NCBI RefSeq assembly: GCF_030013595.1
Contig: NZ_CP122768.1
DNA length: 64,000 nucleotides
Source: Escherichia coli
Lineage (GTDB): Bacteria; Pseudomonadota; Gammaproteobacteria; Enterobacterales; Enterobacteriaceae
Direction: 5' to 3' (one strand)
Of the stretch, positions 22,562 to 61,742 are shown piece after piece. The notes below the pieces were generated by a model that ran no database searches, was not told the origin of the DNA, and saw only the letters and a list, made by a program, of their open reading frames with translations. The translations under genes and the position numbers were made by a program. The number at the start of each line of letters is the position of its first letter. Position 1 is the first letter of the stretch.

Positions 22562-22637
22562 GCCCGGATAGCTCAGTCGGTAGAGCAGGGGATTGAAAAT
22601 CCCCGTGTCCTTGGTTCGATTCCGAGTCCGGGCACCA
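22562..22637 (+). tRNA. pheU: tRNA-Phe (anticodon GAA)
   Basis: 76-nt sequence GCCCGGATAGCTCAGTCGGTAGAGCAGGGGATTGAAAATCCCC...GGGCACCA with GAA anticodon loop and encoded CCA; whether this is the pheU or the identical pheV copy is inferred from the flanking yjdC/cadC context. Confidence 0.97.
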
Positions 22638-35177: not shown

Positions 35178-35567
35178 ATGAAACGTTATATAAAATGGTT
35201 TGCCATCACAATTTTTATCAGTATGTTGAGTGCCTGTGCCCGTACGGCCCCAGTGCAACAGATAAGCACCACTGTCAGTGTGGGTCATACTCAGGAGCAG
35301 GTTAAAAATGCCATTTTGAAAGCAGGTGCGCAGCGCAAGTGGATTATGACGCAAGTGTCCCCTGGAGTTATTAAAGCTCGCTATCAAACACGAAATCACG
35401 TTGCAGAGGTTCGTATTACATATACAGCTACCTACTATAACATCAAATATGACAGTAGCCTGAATCTGCAGGCTTCTGATGGAAAAATTCATAAAAACTA
35501 TAACCGCTGGGTGCGTAACCTAGATAAAGATATACAGGTTAACTTATCTACAGGAGCAACGTTATAG
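35178..35567 (+). CDS. apeA: small lipoprotein, first gene of the APE-type cluster
   Basis: 129 aa with lipobox ISMLSAC; sits 64 bp upstream of the methyltransferase gene; symbol assigned by gene order in the published ape nomenclature. Confidence 0.6.
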   Translation: MKRYIKWFAITIFISMLSACARTAPVQQISTTVSVGHTQEQVKNAILKAGAQRKWIMTQVSPGVIKARYQTRNHVAEVRITYTATYYNIKYDSSLNLQASDGKIHKNYNRWVRNLDKDIQVNLSTGATL

Positions 35568-35631
35568 TGATGCTGATATCGGGCTGGAATGGCCCGATAG
35601 TATTTAACTTTCTCTATAAGAATGGTTATAT

Positions 35632-36690
35632 ATGTACGAACAGGACACGCTCAGCGCACTGGATGCCATCACCGAAGCACAGCGGATTGCCTTTGCTCCT
35701 ATGCTTTTCCAGGCAGCTTTGTGCCTGCGCAATGCAGGAATATTAGATTATTTGGATCAACAGGGTAAACAGGGAGCTCCCCTTAATGCGATTACTGAGC
35801 ACACAGTCCTGAATGAATATGCCGTGGGTGTGTTACTGGATATGGGCTTAAGCGGGCGAATTATTACCTGTAAAGAGGGAATTTATTACCTGGCGAAAAT
35901 CGGTCATTACCTCCTGCATGACACTATGACTCGCGTGAATATGGATTTCACCCAGGATGTCTGTTACCAGGGGCTCTTCTTCCTTGCCGATTCACTCAAT
36001 GAAGGAAAACCTTCCGGGTTAAAAGTATTTGGCGACTGGCCGACGATATATCCGGCACTTTCGCAATTACCAGACGCCGCACGTGATAGCTGGTTTGCGT
36101 TTGATCATTACTATTCAGATGGCGCATTTAACGCCGCACTGCCTTATGTATTCGCCAACAACCCCACAACCTTGTACGATGTGGGTGGCAATACGGGTAA
36201 GTGGGCTTTGCGCTGCTGCAAATTCAATGAAAACATCGCCGTTACGTTATTAGATCTGCCACAACAAATCGTACTGGCGAAAGAAAATATCGCGAATGCA
36301 GGTTTTTCTGATCGCATAGATTTCCATGCGGTGGATATGCTAAGCGATGCCCCATTACCAGGCGAGGCTGATATCTGGTGGATGAGCCAATTTTTAGACT
36401 GTTTTTCACCCGAACAAATAATTAGCATACTCAGCAAAATTGCCAGCGTAATGAAGCCTGGCGCAAAACTTTGCATCATGGAGTTGTTCTGGGATGCACA
36501 GCGGTTTGAAGCGACATCGTTTAGCCTGAATGCATCCTCACTTTATTTTACCTGCATGGCAAACGGTAACAGCCGTTTCTATAGTGCAGAGAAATTTTAC
36601 GACTATCTGAATAAAGCAGGATTCCAGGTAGCAGAGTGTCACGATAATTTAGGCGTTGGGCATACACTTTTGATATGCCAAAAGAAATAA
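35632..36690 (+). CDS. apeB: class I SAM-dependent O-methyltransferase
   Basis: 352 aa; motif I LYDVGGNTGKWAL and overall plant-type O-MT-like length with N-terminal dimerisation region. Confidence 0.75.
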   Translation: MYEQDTLSALDAITEAQRIAFAPMLFQAALCLRNAGILDYLDQQGKQGAPLNAITEHTVLNEYAVGVLLDMGLSGRIITCKEGIYYLAKIGHYLLHDTMTRVNMDFTQDVCYQGLFFLADSLNEGKPSGLKVFGDWPTIYPALSQLPDAARDSWFAFDHYYSDGAFNAALPYVFANNPTTLYDVGGNTGKWALRCCKFNENIAVTLLDLPQQIVLAKENIANAGFSDRIDFHAVDMLSDAPLPGEADIWWMSQFLDCFSPEQIISILSKIASVMKPGAKLCIMELFWDAQRFEATSFSLNASSLYFTCMANGNSRFYSAEKFYDYLNKAGFQVAECHDNLGVGHTLLICQKK

Positions 36691-36730
36691 TCGTCACTTA
36701 ATAATTTTGGTTTACCGCGGGCGCGCGTTG

Positions 36731-37453
36731 ATGAAATTTGCATTAAATATTACCAACTGGCAGGCACTGGCGCCTGGACTTAGCGATGTGCAGCAATGGC
36801 AAGCATGGTCGCGCCAGCCGTGGGCGATTGACCCTGCCGCGCCGTTGGCAAAATTAAGTGAACTGCCAATGATGACCGCTCGTCGTCTCAGTTCAGGCAG
36901 CAAACTGGCTGTTGAATGCGGTCTGACAATGCTACGCCGCCATCAGCCAGACGCTGTTTTGTATACCAGTCGTCATGGCGAACTGGAGCGCAATTACCGC
37001 ATTGTTCATGCACTGGCAACCGAACAGGCGCTTTCTCCGACGGACTTCGCGCTTTCCGTACACAACTCTTCCGTGGGTAACCTGACCATTGTGGCCAAAC
37101 AGCCGATCGTTTCGTCATCGCTTTCGGCTGGTCGCGACAGTTTCCAGCAAGGTTTGTGTGAAGTGCTTAGCCTGCTACAAGCGGGATACCAGCGCGTGTT
37201 GATGGTCGATTTTGATGGCTTTCTACCTGAGTTTTATCACCCGCAACTGCCCGCAGAAATGCCTACCTGGCCGTACGCCGTCGCGCTGGTGATTGAAGCT
37301 GGCGATGACTGGCAATGTGAAACGCAGCCAGCCATTGCGGTAAATGAAACAACACTGCCGCAAAGCATCTTGTTTTTACAGCACTATTTACAAAATGCAG
37401 ATGCTTTTTCACTGCCTGGCGAGCGCGTGCAATGGCGCTGGAGCCGCAGATGA
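36731..37453 (+). CDS. apeC: ketosynthase-like protein lacking active-site Cys (chain-length-factor candidate)
   Basis: 241 aa KS N-terminal-like fold without the ACSSS Cys motif or HGT/GHT histidines; start set at MKFALNITNW. Confidence 0.65.
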   Translation: MKFALNITNWQALAPGLSDVQQWQAWSRQPWAIDPAAPLAKLSELPMMTARRLSSGSKLAVECGLTMLRRHQPDAVLYTSRHGELERNYRIVHALATEQALSPTDFALSVHNSSVGNLTIVAKQPIVSSSLSAGRDSFQQGLCEVLSLLQAGYQRVLMVDFDGFLPEFYHPQLPAEMPTWPYAVALVIEAGDDWQCETQPAIAVNETTLPQSILFLQHYLQNADAFSLPGERVQWRWSRR

Positions 37454-38271
37454 GTAAGCTGATGTCGCGCCTGGGATGGGCATGGCGACTGGTCATGACC
37501 GGGTTATGTTTTGTCCTGTTTGGTCTCGGCGGCCTGCTGCTTTCAGTCGTGTGGTTTAACATATTGTTAGTTTTGGTGTGGGATACTTCCCGCCGCCGTC
37601 GTTTGGCACGTCGCAGCATTGCCGCCAGTTTTCGCCTGTTTTTAACTGTCGCGAAAGGGCTTGGCGTGCTGGATTATCGTATTGATGGCGCTGAAATTTT
37701 ACGTCAGGAACGCGGTTGCCTCGTCGTAGCCAATCATCCCACGCTGATCGATTACGTGCTGCTGGCATCAGTCATGCCAGAAACTGACTGCCTGGTGAAA
37801 AGCGCGCTGTTAAAAAATCCTTTTCTTGGCGGCGTCGTGCGAGCGGCAGATTATTTAATCAACAGCGAAGCAGAAACCCTGTTACCCCGCTGCCAACAGC
37901 GACTGGCACAGGGTGACACTATCCTGATTTTCCCCGAAGGCACACGAACGAAGCCCGGTGAAAAAATGACGTTACAGCGCGGTGCAGCGAATATTGCCGT
38001 GCGCTGCACCAGCGATTTACGCATCGTGACGATCGGCTGTAGCGAGCATCTGCTGGATAAACAAAGTAAGTGGTATGACGTCCCGCCTGCCAGGCCGTTT
38101 TTTACGGTTGAAGTCCGTGGGCGGGTAGAAATCAATAAATTTTACGATGCAACTTCACAAGAGCCGACGCTGGCTGCAAGACAGTTAAACCGGCATCTTT
38201 TGCTTCAATTACAGCAAGGTTGTTTACCTCTATCAGGAATAAATAATGCAAGCGCTTTATCTGGAAATTAA
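37450..38271 (+). CDS. apeD: PlsC-family lysophospholipid acyltransferase
   Basis: HX4D motif (ANHPTLIDY) and FPEGTR motif; N-terminal TM segment; ATGA overlap with apeC stop. Confidence 0.75.
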   Translation: MSKLMSRLGWAWRLVMTGLCFVLFGLGGLLLSVVWFNILLVLVWDTSRRRRLARRSIAASFRLFLTVAKGLGVLDYRIDGAEILRQERGCLVVANHPTLIDYVLLASVMPETDCLVKSALLKNPFLGGVVRAADYLINSEAETLLPRCQQRLAQGDTILIFPEGTRTKPGEKMTLQRGAANIAVRCTSDLRIVTIGCSEHLLDKQSKWYDVPPARPFFTVEVRGRVEINKFYDATSQEPTLAARQLNRHLLLQLQQGCLPLSGINNASALSGN

Positions 38272-38503
38272 AAACCTCATCATCAGCACCCTCAATCTGG
38301 ACGACTTGACTCCTGATGATATTGATATCAATGCGCCACTGTTTGGCGACGGTTTAGGGCTGGACTCTATCGATGCACTGGAACTGGGACTGGCAGTAAA
38401 AAATGAGTACGGCATCGTGCTCTCTGCGGAAAGCGAAGAAATGCGTCAGCACTTTTTCTCCGTCGCCACTCTGGCCTCTTTCATTGCTGCGCAACGTGCC
38501 TGA
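38246..38503 (+). CDS. apeE: acyl carrier protein
   Basis: 85 aa with phosphopantetheine attachment motif LGLDSIDALEL. Confidence 0.8.
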   Translation: MQALYLEIKNLIISTLNLDDLTPDDIDINAPLFGDGLGLDSIDALELGLAVKNEYGIVLSAESEEMRQHFFSVATLASFIAAQRA

Positions 38504-38514
38504 GGAAAACCATC

Positions 38515-38766
38515 ATGACAGACCAACAAACCATTTATCAGGAAGTCTCAGCCCTGCTGGTTAAGCTGTTTGAAATCGATCCGCAGGACATCAAACCTGA
38601 AGCGCGACTGTACGAAGATCTGGAACTGGACAGCATCGACGCCGTTGACATGATTGTGCACCTGCAAAAGAAAACCGGTAAGAAAATCAAGCCGGAAGAG
38701 TTTAAAGCAGTGCGTACAGTCCAGGATGTTGTCGAGGCTGTAGAACGCCTGCTACAAGAAGGCTAA
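38515..38766 (+). CDS. apeF: acyl carrier protein (second copy)
   Basis: 83 aa with LELDSIDAVDM motif. Confidence 0.8.
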   Translation: MTDQQTIYQEVSALLVKLFEIDPQDIKPEARLYEDLELDSIDAVDMIVHLQKKTGKKIKPEEFKAVRTVQDVVEAVERLLQEG

Positions 38767-38770
38767 TTTG

Positions 38771-39352
38771 ATGTCGGGCATTCGCTCGCTACCGATGATT
38801 AAGTTGCTGACCGGATTATTGCTGCTCGTCTGGCCTTTTTTAATCTGGCTAGGTTTGGTGCATAACAGCCTGCACTGGCTGTTGCCGCTGATGGCGCTGT
38901 TGCTTTTATTGCGCCTGCGCCAGCCCCGTCGCCAGACGGGGCCGCTCCAGGTCGTCACAAAAATCGTTGCTGTTGTGGGCATTGTATTGTGTGTCTCCAG
39001 TTTTCTGTTGAAAACGTACCAGTTACTGCTGTTTTACCCGGTAGTGGTTAACGCAGTCATGCTGGCGGTTTTTGGCGGTTCGCTGCGGTCGACAATGCCG
39101 ATAGTTGAGCGGCTGGCACGTTTGCAGGAGCCAGACCTCCCGGAAAAGGCCGTGCGATATACCCGCCGCGTAACGCAGGTCTGGTGCCTGTTTTTTATTT
39201 TCAATGGCAGTATTGCGTTATTTACCACCTTGTATGGCAACATGCCCTTGTGGACAGCCTGGAACGGTATCATTGCTTACCTTCTGATAGGTTTCCTGAC
39301 TGCAGGGGAATGGCTGATACGTCGTAAGATGATCAAACGGAAAACACCATGA
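38771..39352 (+). CDS. apeG: integral membrane protein (COG4648-like)
   Basis: Four or more hydrophobic segments; ATG at 38771 preferred over the TTG at 38768 used by the ORF track. Confidence 0.6.
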   Translation: MSGIRSLPMIKLLTGLLLLVWPFLIWLGLVHNSLHWLLPLMALLLLLRLRQPRRQTGPLQVVTKIVAVVGIVLCVSSFLLKTYQLLLFYPVVVNAVMLAVFGGSLRSTMPIVERLARLQEPDLPEKAVRYTRRVTQVWCLFFIFNGSIALFTTLYGNMPLWTAWNGIIAYLLIGFLTAGEWLIRRKMIKRKTP

Positions 39353-40707
39353 ATCAGACTCTCTCACTTTCACAGTGGTTGACAGCCTCTCGCCCTGTAA
39401 CAACTCCTGTTGCCTGGCTTGGGGAATATACCTGGACACTGGGGCATCTGCGGCATGATGTAGCGCTTTTGATCGACCATTTACGCGACCAGCCAGGCAA
39501 TCGCTGGGCACTTTGTTTTGAAAACAGCTATCTTTTTATTGTAGCGTTGTTGGCCACGCTACACTCAGGTAAAATCCCGGTAATCCCGGGCCATAATCGC
39601 GCCGCTTTGTTAAATGTACAACGCTCTTTGTTTGATTGCGTCCTGAGTGATAAAAGGCTGGGCTGGAACGGTCCACAGTTTGTTGTAAGCACATCTCACC
39701 AGATGACGACCAGCACGATAGCCTTTGATGATATTGCTTCTGACGCGTTTATTGAACTTTTCACATCGGGTTCAACCGGACAACCAAAACAAATTGCAAA
39801 ACCTGTTATCAGCCTTGATCAAGAAGCAAACATGCTGGCAACTCACTTTGCAGACCGACTACTGGGCTGTCGTTTTGTAGCATCCGTGATGCCTCAGCAC
39901 CTGTATGGGCTAACTTTCCGTATTTTTTTACCCATGGCACTTGGCCTGCCATTGCATGCCGCAATGCTCTGGTATTCTGAGCAACTTGCCGCATTAAGCC
40001 ATACCTACCGCTATGCCTTTGTCAGCAGCCCGGCGTTCCTTAAGCGACTCGACCTTCATCTGACGCCTCCCCCAGTGGAAATGATTCTCTCTGCCGGCGG
40101 TATGCTACCATGGCAGGATGTAGAGAAAACTTCCACCTGGCTGAATATATGGCCCGATGAAATCTATGGTAGTACCGAAACAGGTATTCTCGCATGGCGT
40201 TACCGTCAACAGGATAATATCCCCTGGTTTACTTTTTCTGATGTTCATCTTTCACAGGAAAGTGAGGGGGTTCGTGTCTTTTCGCCACTAATCCCTGCTG
40301 AAGGATTGGTGCTTGACGATATGTTGCAATTCAATGAAAACGGTCAGTTCCACCTGATCGGACGACGTGGTCGAGTGGTAAAAATAGAGGAGAAGCGGAT
40401 ATCACTGGTTGAAATCGAACAACGACTTCTGGCACTTGACGGTATTATGGATGTCGCTGCAATACCATTAATACGCAATGGCCGCCAGGCTATCGGTGTC
40501 GTGGTTGTACCAAATAAAGAGGCCCGTCAAATATGGCAATGCTCCGGAGGGAAAACTCTGGAGTTGTCCTGGCGCAAAGCACTATTACCATGGCTTGAAC
40601 CTGTTGCAGTACCTCGTTACTGGCGCATTATTGATGAAATACCAGTAAACAGTATGAACAAGCGTGTCTATGCGCAATTACAGGAGTTATTTCATGATAC
40701 GCCATGA
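39349..40707 (+). CDS. apeH: adenylate-forming acyl/aryl-ACP (or CoA) ligase
   Basis: 452 aa with AMP-binding core motifs TSGSTGQPK and YGSTETG; ATGA overlap with apeG. Confidence 0.8.
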   Translation: MNQTLSLSQWLTASRPVTTPVAWLGEYTWTLGHLRHDVALLIDHLRDQPGNRWALCFENSYLFIVALLATLHSGKIPVIPGHNRAALLNVQRSLFDCVLSDKRLGWNGPQFVVSTSHQMTTSTIAFDDIASDAFIELFTSGSTGQPKQIAKPVISLDQEANMLATHFADRLLGCRFVASVMPQHLYGLTFRIFLPMALGLPLHAAMLWYSEQLAALSHTYRYAFVSSPAFLKRLDLHLTPPPVEMILSAGGMLPWQDVEKTSTWLNIWPDEIYGSTETGILAWRYRQQDNIPWFTFSDVHLSQESEGVRVFSPLIPAEGLVLDDMLQFNENGQFHLIGRRGRVVKIEEKRISLVEIEQRLLALDGIMDVAAIPLIRNGRQAIGVVVVPNKEARQIWQCSGGKTLELSWRKALLPWLEPVAVPRYWRIIDEIPVNSMNKRVYAQLQELFHDTP

Positions 40708-41047
40708 AATTGAGCGCCATCTGGTTCAACCGCAGGAGATGGAAATCGTTCTATACCTTGACCCGATGCTCTACTGGTTTAATGGTCATTTTGCCGTACA
40801 GCCTCTGTTACCAGGCGTGGCCCAGTTGGACTGGGTAATGCATTATGCTACCACGCTGCTTGCTCCGGGCTGGCGTTTTCGTAGTATCCAGAATGTTAAA
40901 TTTCTGGCGCCACTTATACCTGAGACGACTGTTACCCTGCAATTAACATGGCAGGAAACAAGTCAGGTACTCACTTTCTGCTATCAGCGTCACGACGGTG
41001 ACGCCCGCCACACCGCCAGTAGCGGGAAGATCCGTCTATGTCGGTAA
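40694..41047 (+). CDS. apeI: hotdog-fold 3-hydroxyacyl-ACP dehydratase
   Basis: About 117 aa FabA/FabZ-like size; start set at MIRHEIER overlapping apeH end. Confidence 0.6.
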   Translation: MIRHEIERHLVQPQEMEIVLYLDPMLYWFNGHFAVQPLLPGVAQLDWVMHYATTLLAPGWRFRSIQNVKFLAPLIPETTVTLQLTWQETSQVLTFCYQRHDGDARHTASSGKIRLCR

Positions 41048-42714
41048 ACTTTTCTCCCTGCGTGTTGATCCCCTGCTACAACCACGGCGCGATGATGCCG
41101 GGCGTGCTGGCGCGTCTTAAGCCATTTAATCTGCCCTGTATTGTGGTGGATGACGGCAGCGATGCCGCCACGCAACAGCAACTGGATAATCTGGTTAGCG
41201 AACAGCCTGGCGTGACCTTAATTCGCCTGGCAGAAAACGCAGGTAAAGGCGCAGCGGTGATGCGTGGCTTGCAGGCAGCGGCAGACGCAGGGTTCAGCCA
41301 TGCGGTGCAGGTGGATGCTGACGGTCAACATGCGATTGAAGATATCCCCAAACTGCTGGCACTCGCTGAACAACACCCTGTGGCGCTGATCTCCGGTCAG
41401 CCAATTTACGATGACTCCATTCCCCGCTCACGGCTGTACGGGCGCTGGGTCACCCACGTCTGGGTATGGATCGAAACGCTCTCCCTGCAACTGAAAGACA
41501 GCATGTGCGGTTTTCGCGTTTATCCGGTTGCGCCGACGCTGCAACTGGCAAAACGCGCCACCATCGGCAAGCGGATGGATTTCGACACCGAAGTGATGGT
41601 GCGCCTCTACTGGCAGGGAAATACCAGCTATTTCGTGCCGACCCGCGTCACCTATCCACTGGACGGGCTTTCGCATTTTGATGCCCTGAAAGATAACGTC
41701 CGCATCTCGCTCATGCACACGCGTCTGTTTTTCGGCATGTTGCCGCGTATTCCTTCACTGCTGATGTGCCACTCTTCCAGCCACTGGGCGCGGCAGAGTG
41801 AAGTTAAAGGGTTATGGGGAATGCGCCTGATGCTGCTGGTCTGGCGTCTGCTGGGAAGAACGGCGTTTACCGCGCTGCTTTACCCGGTGGTTGGCGTCTA
41901 CTGGCTCACCGCTGCTCGTGCGCGTAAAGCGTCGCAAGACTGGCTCGCCCGTGTGCGCCAACAACAACCACAGGCAGCAAAAATCAACAGCTATCAGCAC
42001 TTTCTACGTTTCGGCAACGCCATGCTCGACAAAATCGCCAGCTGGCGCGGCGAGCTGCAACTCGGGCGTGATGTGCTGTTTGCGCCAGGCGCAGAAGCGG
42101 CGCTTGACGTCCGCGATCCGCGCGGCAAATTGCTGCTGGCCTCACATCTTGGCGATGTGGAAGTGTGCCGGGCGCTGGCAAAAATTGAGGGCTACAAAAC
42201 CATTAACGCGCTGGTGTTTAGCGAAAACGCCCAACGCTTTAAACAGATAATGCAGGAGATGGCTCCCCAGGCAGGCATTAACCTGATGCCGGTAACAGAT
42301 ATCGGCCCGGAAACCGCCATCCTGCTGAAAGAGAAGCTGGATAACGGCGAATGGGTGGCGATTGTCGGTGACCGCATCGCCGTCACCCCGCAACGCGGCG
42401 GCGACTGGCGCGTCTGCTGGAGTCCGTTTATGGGCCAGCCTGCGCCCTTCCCACAGGGGCCGTTTATTCTCGCCTCTATTTTGCGCTGCCCGGTGAATCT
42501 GATTTTCGCCCTACGCCAGCACGGCAAGCTGCATATTCACTGCGAAACCTTTGCCGACCCGCTGCTGTTGCCGCGTGGCGAACGCCAACAGGCGCTGCAA
42601 AACGCTATCGACCACTACGCCGCGCGTCTGGAACATTACGCGCTCCAGTCGCCCCTCGACTGGTTTAATTTTTTCGATTTCTGGCAACTGCCGGAAATTC
42701 AGGACAAGGAGTAA
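41038..42714 (+). CDS. apeJ: bifunctional GT2 glycosyltransferase / LpxL-like lipid A-type acyltransferase fusion
   Basis: N-terminal family-2 GT features (CVLIPCYNHG, VVDDGSD, VDADGQH) followed by a C-terminal half resembling HtrB/MsbB late acyltransferases. Confidence 0.7.
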   Translation: MSVNFSPCVLIPCYNHGAMMPGVLARLKPFNLPCIVVDDGSDAATQQQLDNLVSEQPGVTLIRLAENAGKGAAVMRGLQAAADAGFSHAVQVDADGQHAIEDIPKLLALAEQHPVALISGQPIYDDSIPRSRLYGRWVTHVWVWIETLSLQLKDSMCGFRVYPVAPTLQLAKRATIGKRMDFDTEVMVRLYWQGNTSYFVPTRVTYPLDGLSHFDALKDNVRISLMHTRLFFGMLPRIPSLLMCHSSSHWARQSEVKGLWGMRLMLLVWRLLGRTAFTALLYPVVGVYWLTAARARKASQDWLARVRQQQPQAAKINSYQHFLRFGNAMLDKIASWRGELQLGRDVLFAPGAEAALDVRDPRGKLLLASHLGDVEVCRALAKIEGYKTINALVFSENAQRFKQIMQEMAPQAGINLMPVTDIGPETAILLKEKLDNGEWVAIVGDRIAVTPQRGGDWRVCWSPFMGQPAPFPQGPFILASILRCPVNLIFALRQHGKLHIHCETFADPLLLPRGERQQALQNAIDHYAARLEHYALQSPLDWFNFFDFWQLPEIQDKE

Positions 42715-42717
42715 AGG

Positions 42718-43140
42718 GTGCTTAACGATCCCCGATTTACCGCTGAAGTCGAGCTGACCATTCCCTTTCACGACGTCGATATGATGGGCGTGGCCTGGCA
42801 CGGTAACTATTTTCGCTACTTTGAAGTGGCCCGCGAGGCGCTGCTCAACCAGTTCAATTACGGCTATCGGCAGATGAAAGAGTCCGGTTATTTGTGGCCA
42901 GTGGTCGATGCGCGGGTGAAATATCGCCACGCCCTCACCTTTGAGCAACGCATCCGCGTGCGTGCGCATATCGAAGAGTTCGAAAACCGTCTGCGGATTG
43001 GCTATCAGATTTTCGATGCCGAAACGGGCAAACGCGCCACCACCGGATACACCATTCAGGTCGCAGTCGACGAGCAAAGCCGCGAACTGTGCTTTGTCAG
43101 CCCCGATATTCTGTTTGAACGCATGGGAGTCAAACCATGA
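42718..43140 (+). CDS. apeK: 4HBT/YbgC-type hotdog thioesterase
   Basis: 140 aa, GTG start; conserved N-terminal HDVD...GVAWHGNYFRYFE region typical of 4-hydroxybenzoyl-CoA thioesterase family. Confidence 0.75.
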   Translation: MLNDPRFTAEVELTIPFHDVDMMGVAWHGNYFRYFEVAREALLNQFNYGYRQMKESGYLWPVVDARVKYRHALTFEQRIRVRAHIEEFENRLRIGYQIFDAETGKRATTGYTIQVAVDEQSRELCFVSPDILFERMGVKP

Positions 43141-43742
43141 AATTTTTACCGCTGCTGGCGCTGCTGATTAGCCCGTTTGTGAGCGCCCTGACCCGGGACG
43201 ATCTTCAGCAACGCTTTACCGAACAACCGGTGATCCGCGCCCATTTCGATCAAACCCGGACGATTAAAGATCTGCCGCAGCCGCTGCGATCTCAGGGTCA
43301 GATGTTGATCGCCCGCGACCAGGGGTTATTGTGGGATCAAACCTCACCGTTCCCCATGCAACTATTACTGGACGATAAACGCATGGTGCAGGTGATCAAC
43401 GGTCAGCCGCCGCAAATCATCACGGCAGAAAACAACCCACAGATGTTCCAGTTTAACCACCTGCTGCGCGCGCTGTTCCAGGCCGATCGCAAAGTGCTGG
43501 AACAAAACTTCCGCGTCGAATTTGCCGACAAAGGCGAAGGCCGCTGGACGCTGCGCCTGACGCCGACCACCACGCCGCTGGACAAAATTTTCAACACCAT
43601 CGATCTCGCCGGGCAAACCTATCTGGAGAGCATTCAGCTTAATGATAAACAGGGCGATCGCACCGATATCGCTCTTACCCAACATCAACTGACACCAGCG
43701 CAACTGACCGATGACGAACGCCAACGCTTTGCCACCCAGTAA
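43137..43742 (+). CDS. apeL: LolA-like outer-membrane lipoprotein carrier protein
   Basis: 201 aa with signal peptide MKFLPLLALLISPFVSA; size and composition of LolA/LolB fold. Confidence 0.65.
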   Translation: MKFLPLLALLISPFVSALTRDDLQQRFTEQPVIRAHFDQTRTIKDLPQPLRSQGQMLIARDQGLLWDQTSPFPMQLLLDDKRMVQVINGQPPQIITAENNPQMFQFNHLLRALFQADRKVLEQNFRVEFADKGEGRWTLRLTPTTTPLDKIFNTIDLAGQTYLESIQLNDKQGDRTDIALTQHQLTPAQLTDDERQRFATQ

Positions 43743-46029
43743 ACGCCCCGCGCTGTTATGGGGGCTAGTCTGCCTGGTCATGGCGGCGGCGTTGCTGATC
43801 CTGCTGCCACAATCACGACTGAACAGTAGCGTGCTGGCTATGTTACCCAAACAGGCGATGGGCGATATTCCTCCGGCGCTGAATGACGGCTTTATGCAGC
43901 GTCTGGACCGCCAACTGGTGTGGCTGGTCAGCCCCGGTAAAGAGGCTAATCCCAGGGTGGCTCAGGAGTGGCTGACGCTGCTGCAAAAATCCGCTGCGCT
44001 CGGCGACATTAAAGGGCCAATGGATGCCGCCAGCCAGCAGGCGTGGGGAGCGTTTTTCTGGCAGCACCGCAACGGCCTGATTGACCCCGACACCCGCGCC
44101 CGCCTGCAAAATGGCGGCGAAGCGCAGGCGAAGTGGATCCTCTCCCAGCTTTATTCTGCGTTCTCCGGGGTAAGCGGCAAGGAGCTGCAAAACGATCCGC
44201 TGATGTTAATGCGCGGCTCGCAGCTGGCGATGGCGAAAAATGGCCAGCGTTTACGACTAATGGACGGCTGGCTGGTGACGCAGGATCCCCAGGGCAATTA
44301 CTGGTATCTGCTGCACGGCGAACTGGCGGGATCGTCGTTTGATATGCAGCAAACCCACCAGCTCATCACGACCCTGAATACGCTGGAAAAGGCTCTGAAA
44401 ACGCGTTACCCGCAGGCGCAGTTGCTCTCACGCGGCACGGTGTTTTACAGCGATTACGCCAGCCAACAGGCGAAGCAGGATATCTCCACCCTGGGCGTGG
44501 CAACGCTGCTGGGGGTGATATTGCTGATTGTGGCGGTGTTCCGCTCTTTGCGCCCGTTGCTGCTTTGCGTGATTTCCATCGGCATCGGCGCGCTGGCGGG
44601 AACGGCCGCCACATTGTTGATTTTCGGTGAATTACACCTGATGACGCTGGTGATGAGCATGAGCGTTATCGGCATTTCCGCTGACTACACGCTCTATTAT
44701 CTCACCGAGCGGATGGTGCACGGCAACGACGTTTCGCCGTGGCAAAGCCTGGCGAAAGTACGCAATGCCCTGCTGCTGGCGCTGCTCACAACCGTGGCGG
44801 CATATCTGATTATGATGCTCGCCCCCTTCCCCGGCATTCGCCAGATGGCGATTTTTGCCGCCGTCGGGTTGAGCGCCTCTTGTCTGACCGTCCTGTTCTG
44901 GCATCCGTGGCTGTGCCGTGGTCTGCCGGTGCGCCCGGTTCCGGCGATGGCGCTGATGCTACGCTGGCTGGCAGCGTGGCGGCGCAATAAAAAACTGTCG
45001 CGGGGTCTGCCCGTTGCGCTGGCGCTGTTTTCGCTGGCGGGGATGTCAATGCTGCGCGTCGATGACGATATCTCGCAGTTACAGGCGCTGCCGCAGCACA
45101 TTCTGGCGCAGGAGAAAGCCATTACCGCCCTGACCGGACAAAGCGTCGATCAAAAATGGTTTGTAGTTTACGGCGACTCCCCACAGCAAACATTGCGGCG
45201 ACTGGAGAAATATACCGCCTCACTTGAGTATGCGAAAAAAGAGGGGCTTATCAGCAACTACCGCACTATTCCGCTGAACTCCCTGGCGCGGCAGGAGGAA
45301 GACTTAGACCTGCTGAAAACGGCTGCCCCGACGGTAACAAAAGCACTGCAAAATGCAGGGCTGACGGCGGTGAAACCAGATCTCAACGCCATGCCGGTGA
45401 AGGTCGATGAATGGCTGGCAAGCCCCGCCAGTGAAGGCTGGCGTCTGCTGTGGCTGACGCTGGAAAACGGCGAAAGCGGTGTACTGGTGCCGGTTGAAGG
45501 GGTTAAAAGTAGCGCATTGTTGCAGGAAATCGCCAGCTATTACCCTTGCGGCATTGCCTGGGTTGATCGCAAAAGCTCCTTTGATGAATTGTTCGCACTT
45601 TACCGCTACGTCTTAACCGGCTTGTTGCTGGTGGCGCTGGCAGTGATTGCCTGCGGCGCAGTGGCCCGTCTCGGCTGGCGCAAAGGGCTTATCAGCCTGG
45701 TGCCTTCGGTGCTTTCGCTGGGCTGTGGTCTGGCGGTGCTGGCGATGAGCGGGCAGGCGGTGAATCTCTTTTCGCTGCTGGCGCTGGTGCTGGTGCTTGG
45801 CATCGGTATCAACTACACGCTGTTTTTCAGTAATCCGCGCGGTACACCGTTAACTTCGCTACTGGCGATCGCGCTGGCAATGCTCACCACCTTGCTGACG
45901 CTGGGAATGCTGGTATTCAGCGCCACCCAGGCCATCAGCAGTTTTGGCATTGTGCTGGTGAGCGGTATTTTCACCGCCTTCCTGCTTTCGCCGCTGGCTA
46001 TGCCCGATAAAAAGAGAACAAAAAAATGA
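43711..46029 (+). CDS. apeM: MMPL/RND-superfamily membrane exporter
   Basis: 772 aa with two hydrophobic TM bundles separated by soluble domains; start uncertain (ATG at 43711 or TTG at 43729). Confidence 0.75.
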   Translation: MTNANALPPSKRPALLWGLVCLVMAAALLILLPQSRLNSSVLAMLPKQAMGDIPPALNDGFMQRLDRQLVWLVSPGKEANPRVAQEWLTLLQKSAALGDIKGPMDAASQQAWGAFFWQHRNGLIDPDTRARLQNGGEAQAKWILSQLYSAFSGVSGKELQNDPLMLMRGSQLAMAKNGQRLRLMDGWLVTQDPQGNYWYLLHGELAGSSFDMQQTHQLITTLNTLEKALKTRYPQAQLLSRGTVFYSDYASQQAKQDISTLGVATLLGVILLIVAVFRSLRPLLLCVISIGIGALAGTAATLLIFGELHLMTLVMSMSVIGISADYTLYYLTERMVHGNDVSPWQSLAKVRNALLLALLTTVAAYLIMMLAPFPGIRQMAIFAAVGLSASCLTVLFWHPWLCRGLPVRPVPAMALMLRWLAAWRRNKKLSRGLPVALALFSLAGMSMLRVDDDISQLQALPQHILAQEKAITALTGQSVDQKWFVVYGDSPQQTLRRLEKYTASLEYAKKEGLISNYRTIPLNSLARQEEDLDLLKTAAPTVTKALQNAGLTAVKPDLNAMPVKVDEWLASPASEGWRLLWLTLENGESGVLVPVEGVKSSALLQEIASYYPCGIAWVDRKSSFDELFALYRYVLTGLLLVALAVIACGAVARLGWRKGLISLVPSVLSLGCGLAVLAMSGQAVNLFSLLALVLVLGIGINYTLFFSNPRGTPLTSLLAIALAMLTTLLTLGMLVFSATQAISSFGIVLVSGIFTAFLLSPLAMPDKKRTKK

Positions 46030-46610
46030 TCAAATCCACATTCTGGCGAGCGTTCGCCCTGACCGCTACGCTTATCCTCACCGGCTGTAGCCACTCGCAA
46101 CCAGAACAGGAAGGCCGCCCGCAGGCGTGGCTGCAACCTGGCACGCGCATCACGCTGCCGGCACCAGGGATTTCACCCGCAGTCAATTCGCAGCAACTGT
46201 TGACCGGCAGCTTCAACGGCAAAACCCAGTCGCTGTTAGTGATGCTTAACGCCGACGATCAGAAAATCACCCTTGCCGGGCTGTCGTCGGTCGGCATTCG
46301 CCTGTTTCTGGTGACCTACGATGCGCAAGGGCTACGCGCCGAGCAATCCATCGTCGTCCCACAGTTACCGCCCGCAAGTCAGGTACTGGCTGACGTGATG
46401 CTCAGCCACTGGCCGATTAGCGCCTGGGAGGCGCAACTTCCCGCAGGATGGACACTTCGCGACAACGGTGACAAACGCGAGCTGCGTAACGCCAGCGGCA
46501 AACTGGTCACGGAAATCACCTATCTGAATCGCCAGGGAAAACGCGTGCCAATCAGAATTGAGCAGCATGTCTTTAAATACCACATCACCATTCAATACTT
46601 AGGTGAATGA
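46026..46610 (+). CDS. apeN: DUF3261-type lipoprotein
   Basis: 194 aa, lipobox LTGCSHS; ATGA overlap with apeM. Confidence 0.6.
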   Translation: MIKSTFWRAFALTATLILTGCSHSQPEQEGRPQAWLQPGTRITLPAPGISPAVNSQQLLTGSFNGKTQSLLVMLNADDQKITLAGLSSVGIRLFLVTYDAQGLRAEQSIVVPQLPPASQVLADVMLSHWPISAWEAQLPAGWTLRDNGDKRELRNASGKLVTEITYLNRQGKRVPIRIEQHVFKYHITIQYLGE

Positions 46611-46611
46611 T

Positions 46612-47781
46612 ATGATTTATATTTCCGCCGTCGGCATGATCAACGCCCTGGGAAATAACCTTGACGAAATCGCAGCCAACCTGGCTCGCGGTGTCGCCCC
46701 CGGCATGCGCCCACGCGCAGGCTGGTTGCAGGGGCATCCGCAGGCGGTCCTGGCTGGCGTGGATGGCGAGCTTCCGCTTATCCCGGAAAAATTCGCTGCG
46801 CATCGCTCGCGCAACAATCAGATCCTGCTGGCGGCGCTGGCGCAGCTCCAGCCGCAGGTTGATGACGCTATCGCGAAATATGGCTGCGAGCGCATCGCGA
46901 TTGTGCTTGGCACCAGCACCTCCGGCCTGCATGAAGGCGACACGCACGTTAACCTGCACACCCACGGGCAGCCGAGCACCACGTGGCACTATGCACAACA
47001 AGAACTCGGCGATCCGTCGCGTTTTCTCAGCCACTGGCTGGCGCTCGACGGCCCGGCTTATACCCTTTCAACCGCCTGCTCCTCCAGTGCCAGAGCAATG
47101 ATCAGCGGGCGCAGGCTTATCGAAGCGGGGCTGGTCGATGCCGCCATTGTGGGTGGCGCAGACACCCTGAGCCGAATGCCGATTAACGGTTTTCACAGCC
47201 TCGAATCGCTCTCGCCAACCTTATGTCAGCCGTTTAGTCGTGACCGCGCAGGTATCACCATTGGTGAAGGGGCGGGGCTAATGCTGCTGACCCGGGAACC
47301 GCAGCCCATCGCGTTGCTGGGCGTTGGTGAATCGAGCGACGCTTACCATATTTCAGCCCCGCATCCGCAGGGCGAAGGAGCGATCCGCGCTATTAATCAG
47401 GCGCTGACCGATGCGCAGCTTACGCCGGATGACGTCGGCTATATCAACCTGCACGGCACCGCCACACAGCTCAACGACCAGATTGAATCAATGGTGGTTA
47501 ACGCCCTGTTTGGCGAACGCGTACCGTGCAGCTCCACCAAACATTTGACCGGACACACGCTCGGCGCGGCTGGCATTACCGAGGCGGCAATTAGTATGTT
47601 GATTTTACAGCGTGATTTACCGCTGCCCGCTCAGGACTTCAGCCTGTCGCCGCGCGATCCCACGCTGCCACCGTGTGGCATTATCGAAAAACCGCAGCCG
47701 CTGGCACGTCCGGTGATCCTGTCCAATTCCTTCGCCTTTGGCGGCAATAACGCCAGCATTCTGCTCGGGAGGGTTTCGTGA
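46612..47781 (+). CDS. apeO: beta-ketoacyl-ACP synthase (KS)
   Basis: Active-site motif STACSSSARAM plus LHGTATQ and GHTLGAAG histidines; start set at MIYISAVG (ORF track starts at GTG 46603). Confidence 0.85.
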   Translation: MIYISAVGMINALGNNLDEIAANLARGVAPGMRPRAGWLQGHPQAVLAGVDGELPLIPEKFAAHRSRNNQILLAALAQLQPQVDDAIAKYGCERIAIVLGTSTSGLHEGDTHVNLHTHGQPSTTWHYAQQELGDPSRFLSHWLALDGPAYTLSTACSSSARAMISGRRLIEAGLVDAAIVGGADTLSRMPINGFHSLESLSPTLCQPFSRDRAGITIGEGAGLMLLTREPQPIALLGVGESSDAYHISAPHPQGEGAIRAINQALTDAQLTPDDVGYINLHGTATQLNDQIESMVVNALFGERVPCSSTKHLTGHTLGAAGITEAAISMLILQRDLPLPAQDFSLSPRDPTLPPCGIIEKPQPLARPVILSNSFAFGGNNASILLGRVS

Positions 47782-48242
47782 GCCACTATTTATCCCCCGG
47801 CGCTTATCTGCCCCACGACGCGCCCATGTTACTGCTGGAAGACGTGGTGAGCGTCAGCGATGACAGCGCGGTGTGCCGCGTGACGGTTTCGCCCAGTGGC
47901 GTACTGGCACCGTTTCTCGACCCGGACGGCAATCTCCCTGGCTGGTTTGCCCTTGAACTGATGGCGCAAACCGTCGGCGTCTGGTCTGGCTGGCATCGCC
48001 ACCAGCAGGGCAAAAACAGTATTGAGTTAGGGATGATACTGGGCGCGCGTGAATTGCTTTGCACCACTGGCATTCTGCCCGCAGGCCAGACGCTGACCAT
48101 TACCGTCAAACTGCTGATGCAGGACGATCGCTTCGGCAGCTTTGAGTGCAGCATCAACGACGGCGAGGCGACGGGCCGCATTAACACCTTCCAGCCGACC
48201 GCGGAAGAACTTACCACCCTGTTTCAACAAGGAGCGTCCTGA
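47778..48242 (+). CDS. apeP: hotdog-fold 3-hydroxyacyl-ACP dehydratase
   Basis: 154 aa FabA-like; GTGA overlap with apeO stop. Confidence 0.65.
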   Translation: MSHYLSPGAYLPHDAPMLLLEDVVSVSDDSAVCRVTVSPSGVLAPFLDPDGNLPGWFALELMAQTVGVWSGWHRHQQGKNSIELGMILGARELLCTTGILPAGQTLTITVKLLMQDDRFGSFECSINDGEATGRINTFQPTAEELTTLFQQGAS

Positions 48243-48973
48243 TGAGTCGTTCAGTTCTGGTTACTGGTGCCAGCAAAGGCATTGGTCGCGCCATCGCCTG
48301 CAAGCTTGCGGCAGACGGCTTTAACATTGGCGTTCACTATCACCGTGACGCCACAGGCGCTCAGGAAACGCTGAATGCCATTGTCGCCAACGGGGGTAAC
48401 GGGCGTTTGCTCAGTTTCGACGTCGCAAACCGCGAACAGTGTCGGGAAGTGCTGGAGCATGAGATCGCGCAACACGGTGCCTGGTACGGCGTGGTCAGTA
48501 ACGCCGGGATCGCCCGCGATGCCGCTTTTCCGGCTTTAAGCGATGACGACTGGGATGCGGTGATCCACACCAACCTCGACAGTTTCTACAACGTCATTCA
48601 GCCGTGCATTATGCCAATGATCGGCGCGCGCCAGGGTGGGCGCATCATCACGCTGTCCTCGGTTTCCGGCGTAATGGGCAATCGCGGCCAGGTGAATTAC
48701 AGCGCAGCCAAAGCCGGAATTATCGGCGCAACAAAAGCACTGGCTATCGAACTCGCAAAGCGCAAAATCACCGTCAATTGCATCGCGCCAGGGCTTATTG
48801 ATACCGGGATGATCGAAATGGAAGAAAGCGCTCTGAAAGAGGCAATGTCGATGATCCCCATGAAACGTATGGGCCAGGCGGAAGAAGTTGCCGGGCTTGC
48901 CAGTTATTTAATGTCTGATATTGCGGGTTACGTCACCCGCCAGGTTATTTCCATCAACGGAGGGATGTTATGA
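48242..48973 (+). CDS. apeQ: SDR-family 3-oxoacyl-ACP reductase (FabG-like)
   Basis: Rossmann motif VTGASKGIGRAIA and catalytic YSAAK. Confidence 0.85.
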   Translation: MSRSVLVTGASKGIGRAIACKLAADGFNIGVHYHRDATGAQETLNAIVANGGNGRLLSFDVANREQCREVLEHEIAQHGAWYGVVSNAGIARDAAFPALSDDDWDAVIHTNLDSFYNVIQPCIMPMIGARQGGRIITLSSVSGVMGNRGQVNYSAAKAGIIGATKALAIELAKRKITVNCIAPGLIDTGMIEMEESALKEAMSMIPMKRMGQAEEVAGLASYLMSDIAGYVTRQVISINGGML

Positions 48974-50199
48974 CACGTCGCGTAGTGATTACAGGAATGG
49001 GCGGCGTGACTGCCTTTGGTGAAAACTGGCAGGACGTTTCTGCACGCTTACTGGCGTATGAAAATGCGGTGCGCAAAATGCCGGAGTGGCAGGTCTACGA
49101 TGGGCTGCACACCCTGCTTGGCGCGCCTGTTGATGATTTCACGCTACCGGAGCACTACACCCGCAAGCGTATCCGTGCGATGGGCCGCGTGTCGCAAATG
49201 TCGACCCGTGCCAGCGAGCTGGCGTTAGAGCAGGCAGGGTTGATTGGCGATCCGATATTAACCAGCGGCGAAACGGGCATTGCGTACGGTTCATCGACCG
49301 GCAGTACCGGTCCGGTGAGCGAATTTGCCACCATGCTGACTGAAAAGCACACGAACAACATCACTGGCACCACCTATGTGCAGATGATGCCGCACACCAC
49401 CGCTGTTAATACTGGCCTCTTTTTCGGCCTGCGCGGGCGGGTGATCCCAACCTCCAGCGCCTGTACCTCCGGCAGCCAGGCGATCGGTTATGCGTGGGAA
49501 GCCATTCGCCACGGTTATCAAACGGTGATGGTTGCCGGTGGTGCCGAAGAGTTATGCCCTTCAGAAGCAGCAGTGTTTGATACCCTTTTTGCCACCAGCC
49601 AGCACAATGATGCGCCGAAAACCACACCTTCACCGTTCGATGAAAACCGCGACGGACTGGTGATTGGTGAAGGCGCAGGTACGCTCATTCTCGAAGAACT
49701 GGAGCATGCCAAAGCGCGCGGCGCGACCATTTACGGTGAAATCGTCGGCTTTGCGACGAACTGCGACGCGGCACATATTACCCAGCCGCAGCGCGAAACC
49801 ATGCAGTATTGTATGGAGCAATCGCTGAAAATCGCAGGGTTAAGCGCACAAGATATCGGCTATATTTCAGCGCATGGTACGGCGACCGATCGCGGTGATA
49901 TGGCAGAAAGTCTGGCGACAGCAACCATTTACGGTGATAATGTGCCGCTCTCCTCGCTGAAAAGTTATTTTGGTCATACGCTTGGTGCCTGTGGCGCGCT
50001 CGAAGCCTGGATGAGTCTGCAAATGATGCGCGAAGGTTGGTTTGCGCCTACGCTAAACCTGAATAAACCAGACCCGAATTGTGGCGCGCTGGATTACATC
50101 ATGCATGAAGCCCGCAGGGTTGATTGTGAGTTTTTGCAGAGTAACAACTTTGCCTTTGGCGGCATTAATACATCCATCATTATTAAGCGCTGGCCCTGA
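48970..50199 (+). CDS. apeR: beta-ketoacyl-ACP synthase (FabB/FabF-like)
   Basis: 409 aa with TSSACTSGSQAIG active-site Cys, AHGTATD and GHTLGACG histidines; ATGA overlap with apeQ. Confidence 0.85.
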   Translation: MTRRVVITGMGGVTAFGENWQDVSARLLAYENAVRKMPEWQVYDGLHTLLGAPVDDFTLPEHYTRKRIRAMGRVSQMSTRASELALEQAGLIGDPILTSGETGIAYGSSTGSTGPVSEFATMLTEKHTNNITGTTYVQMMPHTTAVNTGLFFGLRGRVIPTSSACTSGSQAIGYAWEAIRHGYQTVMVAGGAEELCPSEAAVFDTLFATSQHNDAPKTTPSPFDENRDGLVIGEGAGTLILEELEHAKARGATIYGEIVGFATNCDAAHITQPQRETMQYCMEQSLKIAGLSAQDIGYISAHGTATDRGDMAESLATATIYGDNVPLSSLKSYFGHTLGACGALEAWMSLQMMREGWFAPTLNLNKPDPNCGALDYIMHEARRVDCEFLQSNNFAFGGINTSIIIKRWP

Positions 50200-51038
50200 G
50201 TTATACAACCACATGGACATCCCATGTGGTGATTCTTCAAAAAATCTGAATCAATGAATATGAACCTCAAATTCTCTTACGCATACTGAAGAGCATTCCG
50301 TATAACGATTCAGCAGACAAAACTTTATCAGTCCACACGAATCAACGGATGCACAGATGACACGCCCGGTTATCACCGGGCAATGGTTGCCATAACGGGT
50401 AACATAAGGGACTGAACAGTTGTCTTTAGCGCAACGAACTGATCTAACGTACCTGAACGGACAACCTGAAAACAGTCTTTCACCCTGCATTGTCCGCCAG
50501 TGCTTATTACCAACCACGTCTGTTGCAGTAAAGTAATCAGTTGCGAACATTATTTATCAATCGTGACGCTGGCTCGCGCATGGCAGAAAAGGTCCTGACT
50601 GAGCAACAACAGGCATCGTACTGTTGCTGCTCCATGTTGTTTATATGAACGCATCCCGTTTGCAAGGCTTCCGTGTTTTTGACGTTGACGGTAGATTGCT
50701 GCTCTATATCCTTATTGCAGCCGGTGCTGCGGGCCTCAATGAGATTCGCTGACTCTCGCCTTATTCACGCAACGAGCTTTAAGCTCAGAAAAACATCCAA
50801 GTTTGGTGAGTCACAGTCTTACCTGTCGTTGTCATCAATATAGGAATGGATAATCTGGAGAGCGATACTGCAGGCTGATATTGCGGTTTTGCGACAAGTT
50901 TTTAGCATCCGCTTCTACGCCAAATACCTGAAGTAGGAATGGATGCGTTAGCAGCATACATCCGGAACTGCGCGGGGAATAGCCGGAAACGGCTATCCCT
51001 ACCACAATAGCTAACTTTGTAATAGCGCTCTTTTAGGC

Positions 51039-52070
51039 TCATGTACTCTGACGTAATTCTATCTGGTAGTTGAATTGCACGATACGCGACTCTTCTGATT
51101 CATCATGATTATTATTCAATAGTCCAATCAGTAACTTACCTGTCTCTATCCCCATTTTTTTGTAGTCAATACGGATGGATGTCAAAGTTGGGTGTGTTTG
51201 ATCGCAATTGTCTGAACCGTCAAGACAAGCTACAGCGATATTTCCAGGGATTTTTAACAAACGCCGCTGGCACTCAAACATTATACCCAGCGCAATCTCT
51301 TCGTGGCTGCAAATCACAGCATCCAGCTCTGGTTGTCGCAGTAATATCTCGTTTAATGCGTAACGCCCCAATTGCAGACTTGCGGCATCCGGCATGGTGA
51401 TAACAAGATCAGTGTTCTGGTAATGGCTCAGCATTGCTTTATGCCAGCCGTTCAGTTGCTGACGTTGCAGGCGGTTGTCCATATGCGCACCGATAAATCC
51501 GATATTCTTATAACCCTGCTCCAGCAGATGTTCGGTCAGTTTATGTGATGCTTCAAAAAATGCTGTTTCGATGGTAATTTGAGCCGGACTGAAAGGGGAA
51601 CCGATAACGTTAATGGTAGGTATATTTGTTTTCTCGAGTATCTGGTGAGTTTTATCAGCCAACTGAGAACCAAAAATAACTAACGCCGCCGGGTTGCCTT
51701 GAAGAAGCGTCATCAGAATTTCAGCTTCTTTGAGCTGATTATACTCATGACACCCAAGCAGTAGCTGGAATTCATTTTTATTAAGCACCTGCTGTAATGA
51801 CTGCATAAAGCGGGAGCTGGCTTTATCTGTCAGGGAAGGAACCAGTACGGCGACTGTATGACTGTGACCAGATGCAAGGGCGCCAGCAGTTCTGTTGGGA
51901 ATATAACCCAACTCTTCTACGGCCTGTTCTATCTTTTCCCTCAGCTTGTCAGAAACCTGTTCCGGTGTTCTCAGCGCGCGGGAAACGGTCATAGTTCCGA
52001 CACCTGCAAAGTTAGCGACCTCCTGCAGCGTCACCCGTCCGGTACCACGGCGCTTACGTGTTTTTTCCAT
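51039..52070 (-). CDS. LacI-family transcriptional regulator
   Basis: N-terminal HTH VTLQEVANFAGVGTMTVSRAL and periplasmic-binding-protein-like effector domain; divergent from the PTS genes. Confidence 0.85.
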   Translation of the reverse strand: MEKTRKRRGTGRVTLQEVANFAGVGTMTVSRALRTPEQVSDKLREKIEQAVEELGYIPNRTAGALASGHSHTVAVLVPSLTDKASSRFMQSLQQVLNKNEFQLLLGCHEYNQLKEAEILMTLLQGNPAALVIFGSQLADKTHQILEKTNIPTINVIGSPFSPAQITIETAFFEASHKLTEHLLEQGYKNIGFIGAHMDNRLQRQQLNGWHKAMLSHYQNTDLVITMPDAASLQLGRYALNEILLRQPELDAVICSHEEIALGIMFECQRRLLKIPGNIAVACLDGSDNCDQTHPTLTSIRIDYKKMGIETGKLLIGLLNNNHDESEESRIVQFNYQIELRQST

Positions 52071-52340
52071 TTCGACTCCATGGATAATTACAACCAGCTG
52101 TTTTCATTACTTTTATTTCACCATTACTCTTTCCAGTTTTTGCCCACGGTAGCAAATATCCTGTTGCATTGTATATGCAGGAACCGAATATAGCCAAAGC
52201 ATGGCGGCAGAGAAATGATAGCGCTATCACAAAGATTGGTAGCGTTATCAGATAGCGCTATCAAATGCGACAATCATCACATTAATTAATGCGTAAAATA
52301 TCTACTCTCCTGTTAATTATCATCGGGAGTTATCAGTAGC

Positions 52341-52784
52341 ATGTTAAAAAATCTATTAAATACAGAGGTCGTTCAGGTCGTGGAACAGGTCAAAGACTGG
52401 CGGGAAGCCGTGGCGATTTCATGCCGACCGTTGATTGAAAACGGCTCTATCGAACCGCGTTATGTTGATGCGATCTATCACTCGCACGACACTATCGGTC
52501 CGTACTATGTGGTTGGCCCTGGTATTGCGATGCCTCATGCGCGCCCGGAAGAGGGGGCTAACAAGCTGTCATTAGCACTGACCCTGATCCCTTCAGGTGT
52601 GAATTTTGATGCCGATGAAAACGATCCAGTGAAATTACTGATTGTGCTGGCTGCAACCGACAGTACCAGCCACATTGAAGCGATTTCTCAACTCGCCAAG
52701 TTATTCGATAACGAAAAAGACATACAGGCCATTTTGACGGCCAAAACGACGCAGGACATTTTGTCTGTTATTGCGCGCTATTAA
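52341..52784 (+). CDS. PTS EIIA component (PTS_EIIA_2 type)
   Basis: 147 aa, phosphorylatable His in GIAMPHARP. Confidence 0.8.
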   Translation: MLKNLLNTEVVQVVEQVKDWREAVAISCRPLIENGSIEPRYVDAIYHSHDTIGPYYVVGPGIAMPHARPEEGANKLSLALTLIPSGVNFDADENDPVKLLIVLAATDSTSHIEAISQLAKLFDNEKDIQAILTAKTTQDILSVIARY

Positions 52785-52799
52785 TCCAGAGGAACATTT

Positions 52800-53087
52800 A
52801 TGAAAATTACAGTGGTTTGCGGTAACGGCTTAGGCACCAGCCTGATGATGGAAATGAGCATTAAAAGCATTTTGAAGGATTTGTCCGTCAGCGCTGATGT
52901 TGATCACGTCGACCTGGGCTCCGCGAAAGGGACGCCGAGTGATATCTATGTCGGCACCAAAGACATTGCCGAGCAGTTAGCCGCGCAGTCTGTCGCAGGC
53001 AAAATCGTCGCACTGGAAAATATGATTGATAAGAAAGCCATGAGAGAACGTTTGTCCGTGGTATTAACCGAATTAGGCGCACTGTAA
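52800..53087 (+). CDS. PTS EIIB component (ascorbate/SgaB-like)
   Basis: 95 aa, active-site Cys in VVCGNGLGTS. Confidence 0.8.
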   Translation: MKITVVCGNGLGTSLMMEMSIKSILKDLSVSADVDHVDLGSAKGTPSDIYVGTKDIAEQLAAQSVAGKIVALENMIDKKAMRERLSVVLTELGAL

Positions 53088-53099
53088 GCTGGGGGCGAT

Positions 53100-56291: not shown

Positions 56292-56302
56292 AACGATTCT
56301 CC

Positions 56303-61727: not shown

Positions 61728-61742
61728 TTAAAAGTATTTTCC

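Follow-up and report, generated by a model that had tools for sequence, protein, structure and literature searches.

ApeC, a probable non-catalytic half-ketosynthase partner of ApeO in an Escherichia coli aryl-polyene cluster

The open reading frame at positions 36731-37453 of the window, as we call the whole 64,000-nucleotide stretch of E. coli DNA analyzed here, is very probably apeC of the E. coli aryl-polyene (APE) cluster, encoding a non-catalytic half-ketosynthase that pairs with the ketosynthase (KS) ApeO and shapes its substrate pocket. We found no evidence contradicting the identification as apeC. An earlier note had read the product as a KS-like, inactive protein that partners the apeO product in building a polyene of defined length; this is the published description of ApeC, and the orthology of the two proteins to the chains of crystal structure 6QSP agrees with it. 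Similarly, the cluster papers on Acinetobacter (PMC8358021) and E. coli (PMC8253772) name ApeC the KS-CLF partner of ApeO. The interpretation is supported with three qualifications: the protein is only half a KS, its gene lies well upstream of apeO, and the published case for length control by ApeC itself draws on cavity shape and docking, not on ApeC mutagenesis (PMC8358021, PMC8253772, PMC9006962).

The finding itself is already known, since the gene, its partner, the ortholog crystal, the in vitro reconstitution and the E. coli genetics were published between 2019 and 2025. It therefore has little discovery value, as RefSeq already names the product a chain-length factor, and it serves mainly as a sanity check that the aryl-polyene pigment cluster in the window is complete and sits on an island associated with tRNA-Phe. 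Our comparison presents ApeC as a truncated and divergent KS partner, not a textbook KSβ.

The apeC gene and its cluster

Translation of the window gives a frame of 240 amino acids on the plus strand, running from the ATG at 36731 to the stop at 37453 without interruption, while the opposite strand over the same span is stop-rich. An in-frame TTG at 36707 is an alternative start that would extend the product by eight residues; the ATG is favored because Met1 of the Xenorhabdus doucetiae ortholog (XdApeC) aligns with Met1 of E. coli ApeC. The RefSeq CDS WP_001350106.1 of strain P13-6 (13 differences from the window over 29,001 aligned positions) has an identical span and the same ATG start, and its product is named “beta-ketoacyl synthase chain length factor.” Pfam PF13723 (“Beta-ketoacyl synthase, N-terminal domain”) covers the protein end to end (model positions 1-223 of 223, E 1.3e-66) and is the sole Pfam family found in it; the PF00109 and PF02801 pair of full-length ketosynthases is absent. 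Among 1.84 billion cluster representatives (clusters at 50% identity), 2041 relatives were detected at E<=1e-3, and nearly all of the matches listed have about 240 amino acids. The Pfam match and these relatives indicate that the frame is a real, conserved gene, and the coordinates proposed in the earlier note proved right, with a product length of 240 amino acids. None of the families in NCBIfam release 20 matches ApeC, so the name assigned by PGAP must have another source of evidence.

Within the 18-gene apeA-apeR cluster, which spans 35178-50199 (Table 1), apeC comes third. The 18-gene run in the RefSeq annotation of P13-6 agrees gene for gene with apeA-apeR of strain CFT073 (c1204-c1186; Table 1 of PMC8253772), and the assignments of apeG to apeN combine the RefSeq annotation mapped onto the window with that published table. 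The CFT073 cluster has been dissected genetically (PMC8253772), and according to the published text, most core-gene mutants of the E. coli cluster are unpigmented. The 15.3-kb cluster is 98.2% identical to those of Nissle 1917 and clone D i14, and ApeC matches the Nissle 1917 protein at 238 of 240 residues. Even a metagenomic ApeC homolog with 27% identity retains the order ApeC, acyltransferase, ACP, ACP. APE clusters have been linked to biofilm formation in E. coli; in A. baumannii they have been linked to virulent strains (PMC8358021).

Table 1. Features of the window, with positions counted from its first letter.
Feature	Position	Strand	Description
tRNA-Phe	22562-22637		Start of the island on which the APE cluster sits
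Island segment	22562-35100		Tyrosine integrase, IS1 remnant, fecIRABCDE ferric-citrate operon
apeA	35178-35567	+	Small hypothetical protein or lipoprotein; letter per Table 1 of PMC8253772
apeB	35632-36690	+	FlxJ-family SAM methyltransferase
apeC	36731..37453	+	240-aa inactive half-size KS-like protein, predicted chain-length-factor partner of ApeO
apeD	37450..38271	+	Lysophospholipid acyltransferase
apeE	38246-38503	+	Acyl carrier protein serving the ketosynthases; RefSeq and NCBIfam (NF006617, NF003757 for apeE/apeF)
apeF	38515-38766	+	Second, separately encoded acyl carrier protein; RefSeq and NCBIfam (as for apeE)
apeG-apeJ	within 38771..46610	+	COG4648 protein, 4-HBA acyl-ACP synthetase ApeH, dehydratase ApeI, glycosyltransferase ApeJ
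apeK-apeN	within 38771..46610	+	Thioesterase ApeK, LolA-like ApeL, MMPL transporter ApeM, DUF3261 protein ApeN
apeO	46612..47781	+	Active ketosynthase, predicted to form a heterodimer with ApeC; NCBIfam NF006618 (556 bits, cut-off 407)
apeP	47778-48242	+	Dehydratase
apeQ	48242-48973	+	FabG2 ketoreductase; TIGR01831, 476 bits
apeR	48970..50199	+	Second, FabB/FabF-like ketosynthase; NCBIfam NF006587 (777 bits, cut-off 470)
Downstream of apeR	50200-64000		LacI-type regulator; ascorbate-type PTS IIA/IIB/IIC set; transposase fragment; aldose epimerase, fucP-like and ribokinase genes

Between the end of apeC at 37453 and the start of apeO at 46612 lie 9.2 kb and 11 genes, with apeC upstream. The stop of apeC and the start of apeD share the sequence ATGA (37450-37453), and several other ape genes overlap by 4 to approximately 30 bases, an arrangement consistent with translational coupling. 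The coupling of apeC would be with the acyltransferase gene apeD, not with its partner gene apeO.

Family, fold and loss of the catalytic triad

In a PDB sequence search, residues 1-239 of ApeC matched chain B of 6QSP, XdApeC, with E 7.5e-92 and approximately 59% identity, and ApeC also matched chain A of 7F28, the Acinetobacter baumannii ortholog AbApeC, with E 3.6e-15. The product of apeO matched the companion chains 6qsp_A (E 2.6e-173) and 7f28_B, AbApeO (E 1.5e-81). In the Foldseek library, the 6QSP entry is titled [quoted passage not shown] The structure is reportedly that of Grammbitter et al. in JACS in 2019. Since ApeC and ApeO each match one chain of 6QSP, both partners of the crystallized heterodimer have close orthologs in the window, and by analogy the E. 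coli proteins would form a physical heterodimer as well.

The AlphaFold2 model of ApeC, built on an alignment of 80 sequences, reached a pLDDT of 96.2 and a pTM of 0.92. Foldseek against the PDB placed 6qsp_B first (TM 0.95, 59% identity) and AbApeC (7f28) second, with further matches to the chain-length factors Iga12 (6kxf_B, E 1.8e-8), actinorhodin CLF (1tqy_B, E 6.7e-7, TMt 0.40) and AntE (6smp_F), and to numerous FabF entries (E from about 1e-7 to 1e-6). Against full-length KS and CLF chains, the TMq was approximately 0.65 and the TMt only 0.38-0.46, with a target coverage of approximately 40-45%, which indicates that ApeC is roughly half a ketosynthase. According to the model, it retains the first of the two thiolase halves of a KS and is without the C-terminal one; AbApeC is likewise described as a protein of a single thiolase half (PMC8358021). 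The comparison with KS-CLF structures that the earlier note had proposed as a check yields close superposition on 6QSP_B, and the classical CLFs and FabF are covered by about half.

Direct sequence comparison tells less. BLASTP of ApeC against ApeO and ApeR was not significant (E 1.1 and 3.3), and hhalign gave a probability of 0.5% between the 80-sequence ApeC profile and an alignment of ApeO and ApeR. The PDB sequence search with ApeC at E<=1 reached no classical CLF or full-length KS chain, and a PDB profile search reached a single full-length KS-like chain, 9s5h_C, with a weak E of 1.6. Because comparison with the two ketosynthases comes back empty, the likeness of ApeC to a KS is demonstrable only through Pfam and the fold. 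The KS-like N-terminal character ascribed to the protein is therefore borne out in its family and fold, but not in direct comparison with ApeO and ApeR.

The two ketosynthases of the window both have intact triads, formed by Cys156 (STACSSS), His281 (HGT) and His315 (GHT) in ApeO, and by Cys165 (SSACTSG, a context like that of FabB/FabF), His302 (HGT) and His336 (GHT) in ApeR. It had been claimed that both carry ACSSS as well as HGT/GHT; this stands for all the motifs of ApeO and for the histidine motifs of ApeR, but of the two only ApeO has the literal ACSSS. A motif scan of ApeC detected no ACSSS or CSS, no HGT and no GHT, and the region that bears the two KS histidines, within the C-terminal thiolase half, is missing. 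The cysteines of ApeC (63, 143 and 196) are not conserved in its family: among 80 diverse relatives of 28-52% identity, cysteine occurs in at most 14 sequences at any alignment column, and HGT occurs in none. These results argue that the triad is absent from the whole ApeC family, and without a nucleophilic cysteine and a His-His pair ApeC cannot condense. The absence of the cysteine and of both histidine motifs, as first noticed, holds in the scan and the alignment alike, and an intact Cys-His-His triad was sought and found neither in ApeC nor in the 80 relatives.

Conservation within the family lies elsewhere. Eight residues are invariant among the 80 relatives (R51, R52, S102, P103, F106, V110, H111 and N112), and two more are nearly so (H82 in 70 of 80, E144 in 76 of 80). 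Arg51 and Arg52 align with Arg30 and Arg31 of AbApeC, which have been proposed to dock the acidic ACP (PMC8358021). Residues 109-112 form an S-V-H-N motif, encoded at 37055-37066. We considered this motif as a replacement for ACSSS, with Asn in place of Cys, and rejected it, as it matches the earlier “SP..F....N..G..I” helix of KS and CLF proteins (in the weak 9s5h_C match). This is an interface and pocket helix of the full-length proteins, which suggests a structural role.

The lost cysteine would instead correspond to Arg135. An ungapped alignment of ApeC and ApeR, anchored on “GYQ.V,” places the equivalent position there, and the strand (127-131) and helix (134-150) predicted in the model fit this placement. 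The mapping, which derives from a local alignment and a helix start, not from structural superposition, points to a column that is variable across the family (A, E, K, V, T, R, Q and others).

Proposed role in chain elongation and its alternatives

From the crystallized orthologs, we propose that ApeC would bind active ApeO as a pseudo-two-fold heterodimer, standing in for the second KS subunit of an ordinary dimer. It would stabilize ApeO, have no active-site cavity of its own, and contribute to the wall and end of the ApeO substrate pocket, with the Arg51-Arg52 patch as part of a docking surface for the acidic carrier protein. ApeH would load a 4-hydroxybenzoyl starter onto the ACP, and ApeO-ApeC would iteratively add malonyl units to the ACP-bound starter, each round including reduction by ApeQ and then dehydration by ApeI/ApeP. 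The polyene would grow until the pocket is full, at approximately six to seven double bonds, and ApeR, as a homodimeric FabB-like KS, would contribute mainly shorter species and higher throughput.

Published work on the orthologs underlies most of this scheme. ApeO-ApeC is a heterodimer in which the ApeO pocket is lined by both subunits and ApeC has no cavity of its own, and ApeR is described as homodimeric (PMC8358021). In vitro, ApeO-ApeC alone yields the fully elongated polyene, and ApeR adds shorter species and throughput (PMC8358021). [quoted passage not shown] In this literature, the control attributed to ApeC itself is drawn from cavity geometry and docking, not from ApeC mutants, and the length-setting role is weaker than the name implies.

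XdApeC is the closest known counterpart of E. coli ApeC. The two have the same length and the same loss of the triad, the XdApeC gene likewise comes third in an apeA-R cluster, and the ApeO partner is equally conserved; the differences amount to species and sequence drift, with Ile instead of Arg at the position that probably replaces the cysteine. AbApeC belongs to the same family, forms a heterodimer with ApeO and shares the conserved Arg-Arg and SPT..SVHN motifs (PMC8358021), but it has approximately 26% identity to E. coli ApeC and is without about 20 N-terminal residues, the first helix, of the E. coli and Xenorhabdus proteins.

Classical chain-length factors have a conserved Gln where ketosynthases have the catalytic Cys, whereas in ApeC the equivalent would be Arg135, in a variable column. 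Classical KSβ proteins (1TQY_B, AntE 6SMP, Iga12 6KXF_B) resemble ApeC as inactive KS-fold proteins that pair with an active KS as heterodimers and seal its substrate pocket, and they are its nearest structural neighbors outside the ApeC family (Foldseek E 1e-8 to 1e-6). Nonetheless, they are full-length proteins of approximately 350-400 amino acids with both thiolase halves, to which ApeC contributes one half (TMt 0.40-0.46), and they have no detectable sequence similarity to it. Their genes typically lie directly downstream of the KS gene and are often translationally coupled to it (PMC9006962), unlike the distant, upstream apeC. FabF and FabB share the thiolase-type fold of their N-terminal half with ApeC (Foldseek E ~1e-7), but they are active Cys-His-His homodimers, whereas ApeC is half-size, inactive and, judging from its orthologs, heterodimeric. 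ApeC therefore lacks the full-length fold, sequence homology, Gln and KS-adjacent gene of a classical KSβ, and has the profile, orthology, ~240-aa half fold, missing triad, Arg-Arg pair and APE cluster context of the ApeC/PF13723 family. Although it would act as a chain-length factor, it is a member of a distinct family of truncated proteins divergent in sequence, and this distinction has already been published.

An alternative that we regard as unlikely is that ApeC is an obligate structural partner, required for folding, solubility and ACP docking, while length is set by ApeO pocket residues and the rigidity of the polyene. The absence of a cavity in ApeC fits this idea, as does the presence of the proposed ACP-docking Arg-Arg pair among its invariant residues. 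The cavity volumes of AbApeO-AbApeC and AbApeR are moreover nearly equal, at 120.4 and 120 cubic angstroms, and yet the two systems make products of different length (PMC8358021); we also found no ApeC mutagenesis that alters chain length in the ApeO-ApeC literature (PMC8358021, PMC8253772, PMC9006962). Against it, the pocket is lined by both subunits and ends at AbApeO His138 and AbApeC Glu142 (PMC8358021), the latter close in the alignment to the Asp162-Gly163 (D162-G163) loop of E. coli ApeC, pocket depth is stated to determine the chain length of ApeO-ApeC, and in the act KSβ, AntE and Iga12, interface residues of the partner control length (PMC9006962). We prefer the reading in which ApeC shapes the pocket, and residues of ApeC, rather than of ApeO alone, would fix the final length in E. 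coli.

We found no explanation for the S-V-H-N motif, His82 or Glu144 in the published ApeO-ApeC literature (PMC8358021, PMC8253772, PMC9006962), so a role of ApeC beyond pocket closure could exist. That the half-size family does act beyond passive closure, by residual catalysis, proofreading or substrate gating, seems to us highly improbable; if true, ApeC would be mechanistically distinct from classical chain-length factors. The Gln found in classical chain-length factors and in KSQ domains has been suggested to take part in malonyl-ACP decarboxylation. A non-condensing activity of this kind in ApeC, through His111-Asn112, His82 or Glu144, would be in keeping with the conservation of these residues, but we give it still less credence: the starter is 4-hydroxybenzoate loaded by ApeH, which makes decarboxylative priming unnecessary, the probable cysteine position varies across the family, the crystal structures report no ApeC cavity, and the conserved motif aligns, if weakly, with a structural helix. 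As for the idea that the frame is a functionless, decaying ketosynthase fragment, its half length and the loss of all catalytic residues would suit such a fragment, but it is effectively refuted by the conservation data. The relatives form about 2000 clusters at 50% identity with a length of ~240 amino acids among the matches listed and with eight residues held invariant; the model is confidently folded, orthologs crystallize as stoichiometric partners of ApeO, and gene order is conserved.

Distribution and genomic island

Of 5426 complete E. coli genomes, only 824 (approximately 15%) carry the apeC segment by megablast, with matches in three identity bands, and PGAP gives the product the chain-length-factor name there as well. 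In the window, truncated pseudogenes of a ShlB/hemagglutinin two-partner-secretion system lie immediately upstream of apeA. Nissle 1917 has the same secretion remnant before apeA and a different downstream flank, and on this basis the APE cluster and the remnant seem to travel together, as one module, among mosaic islands. In the region downstream of apeR, the window diverges from P13-6 from approximately 58558 onward.
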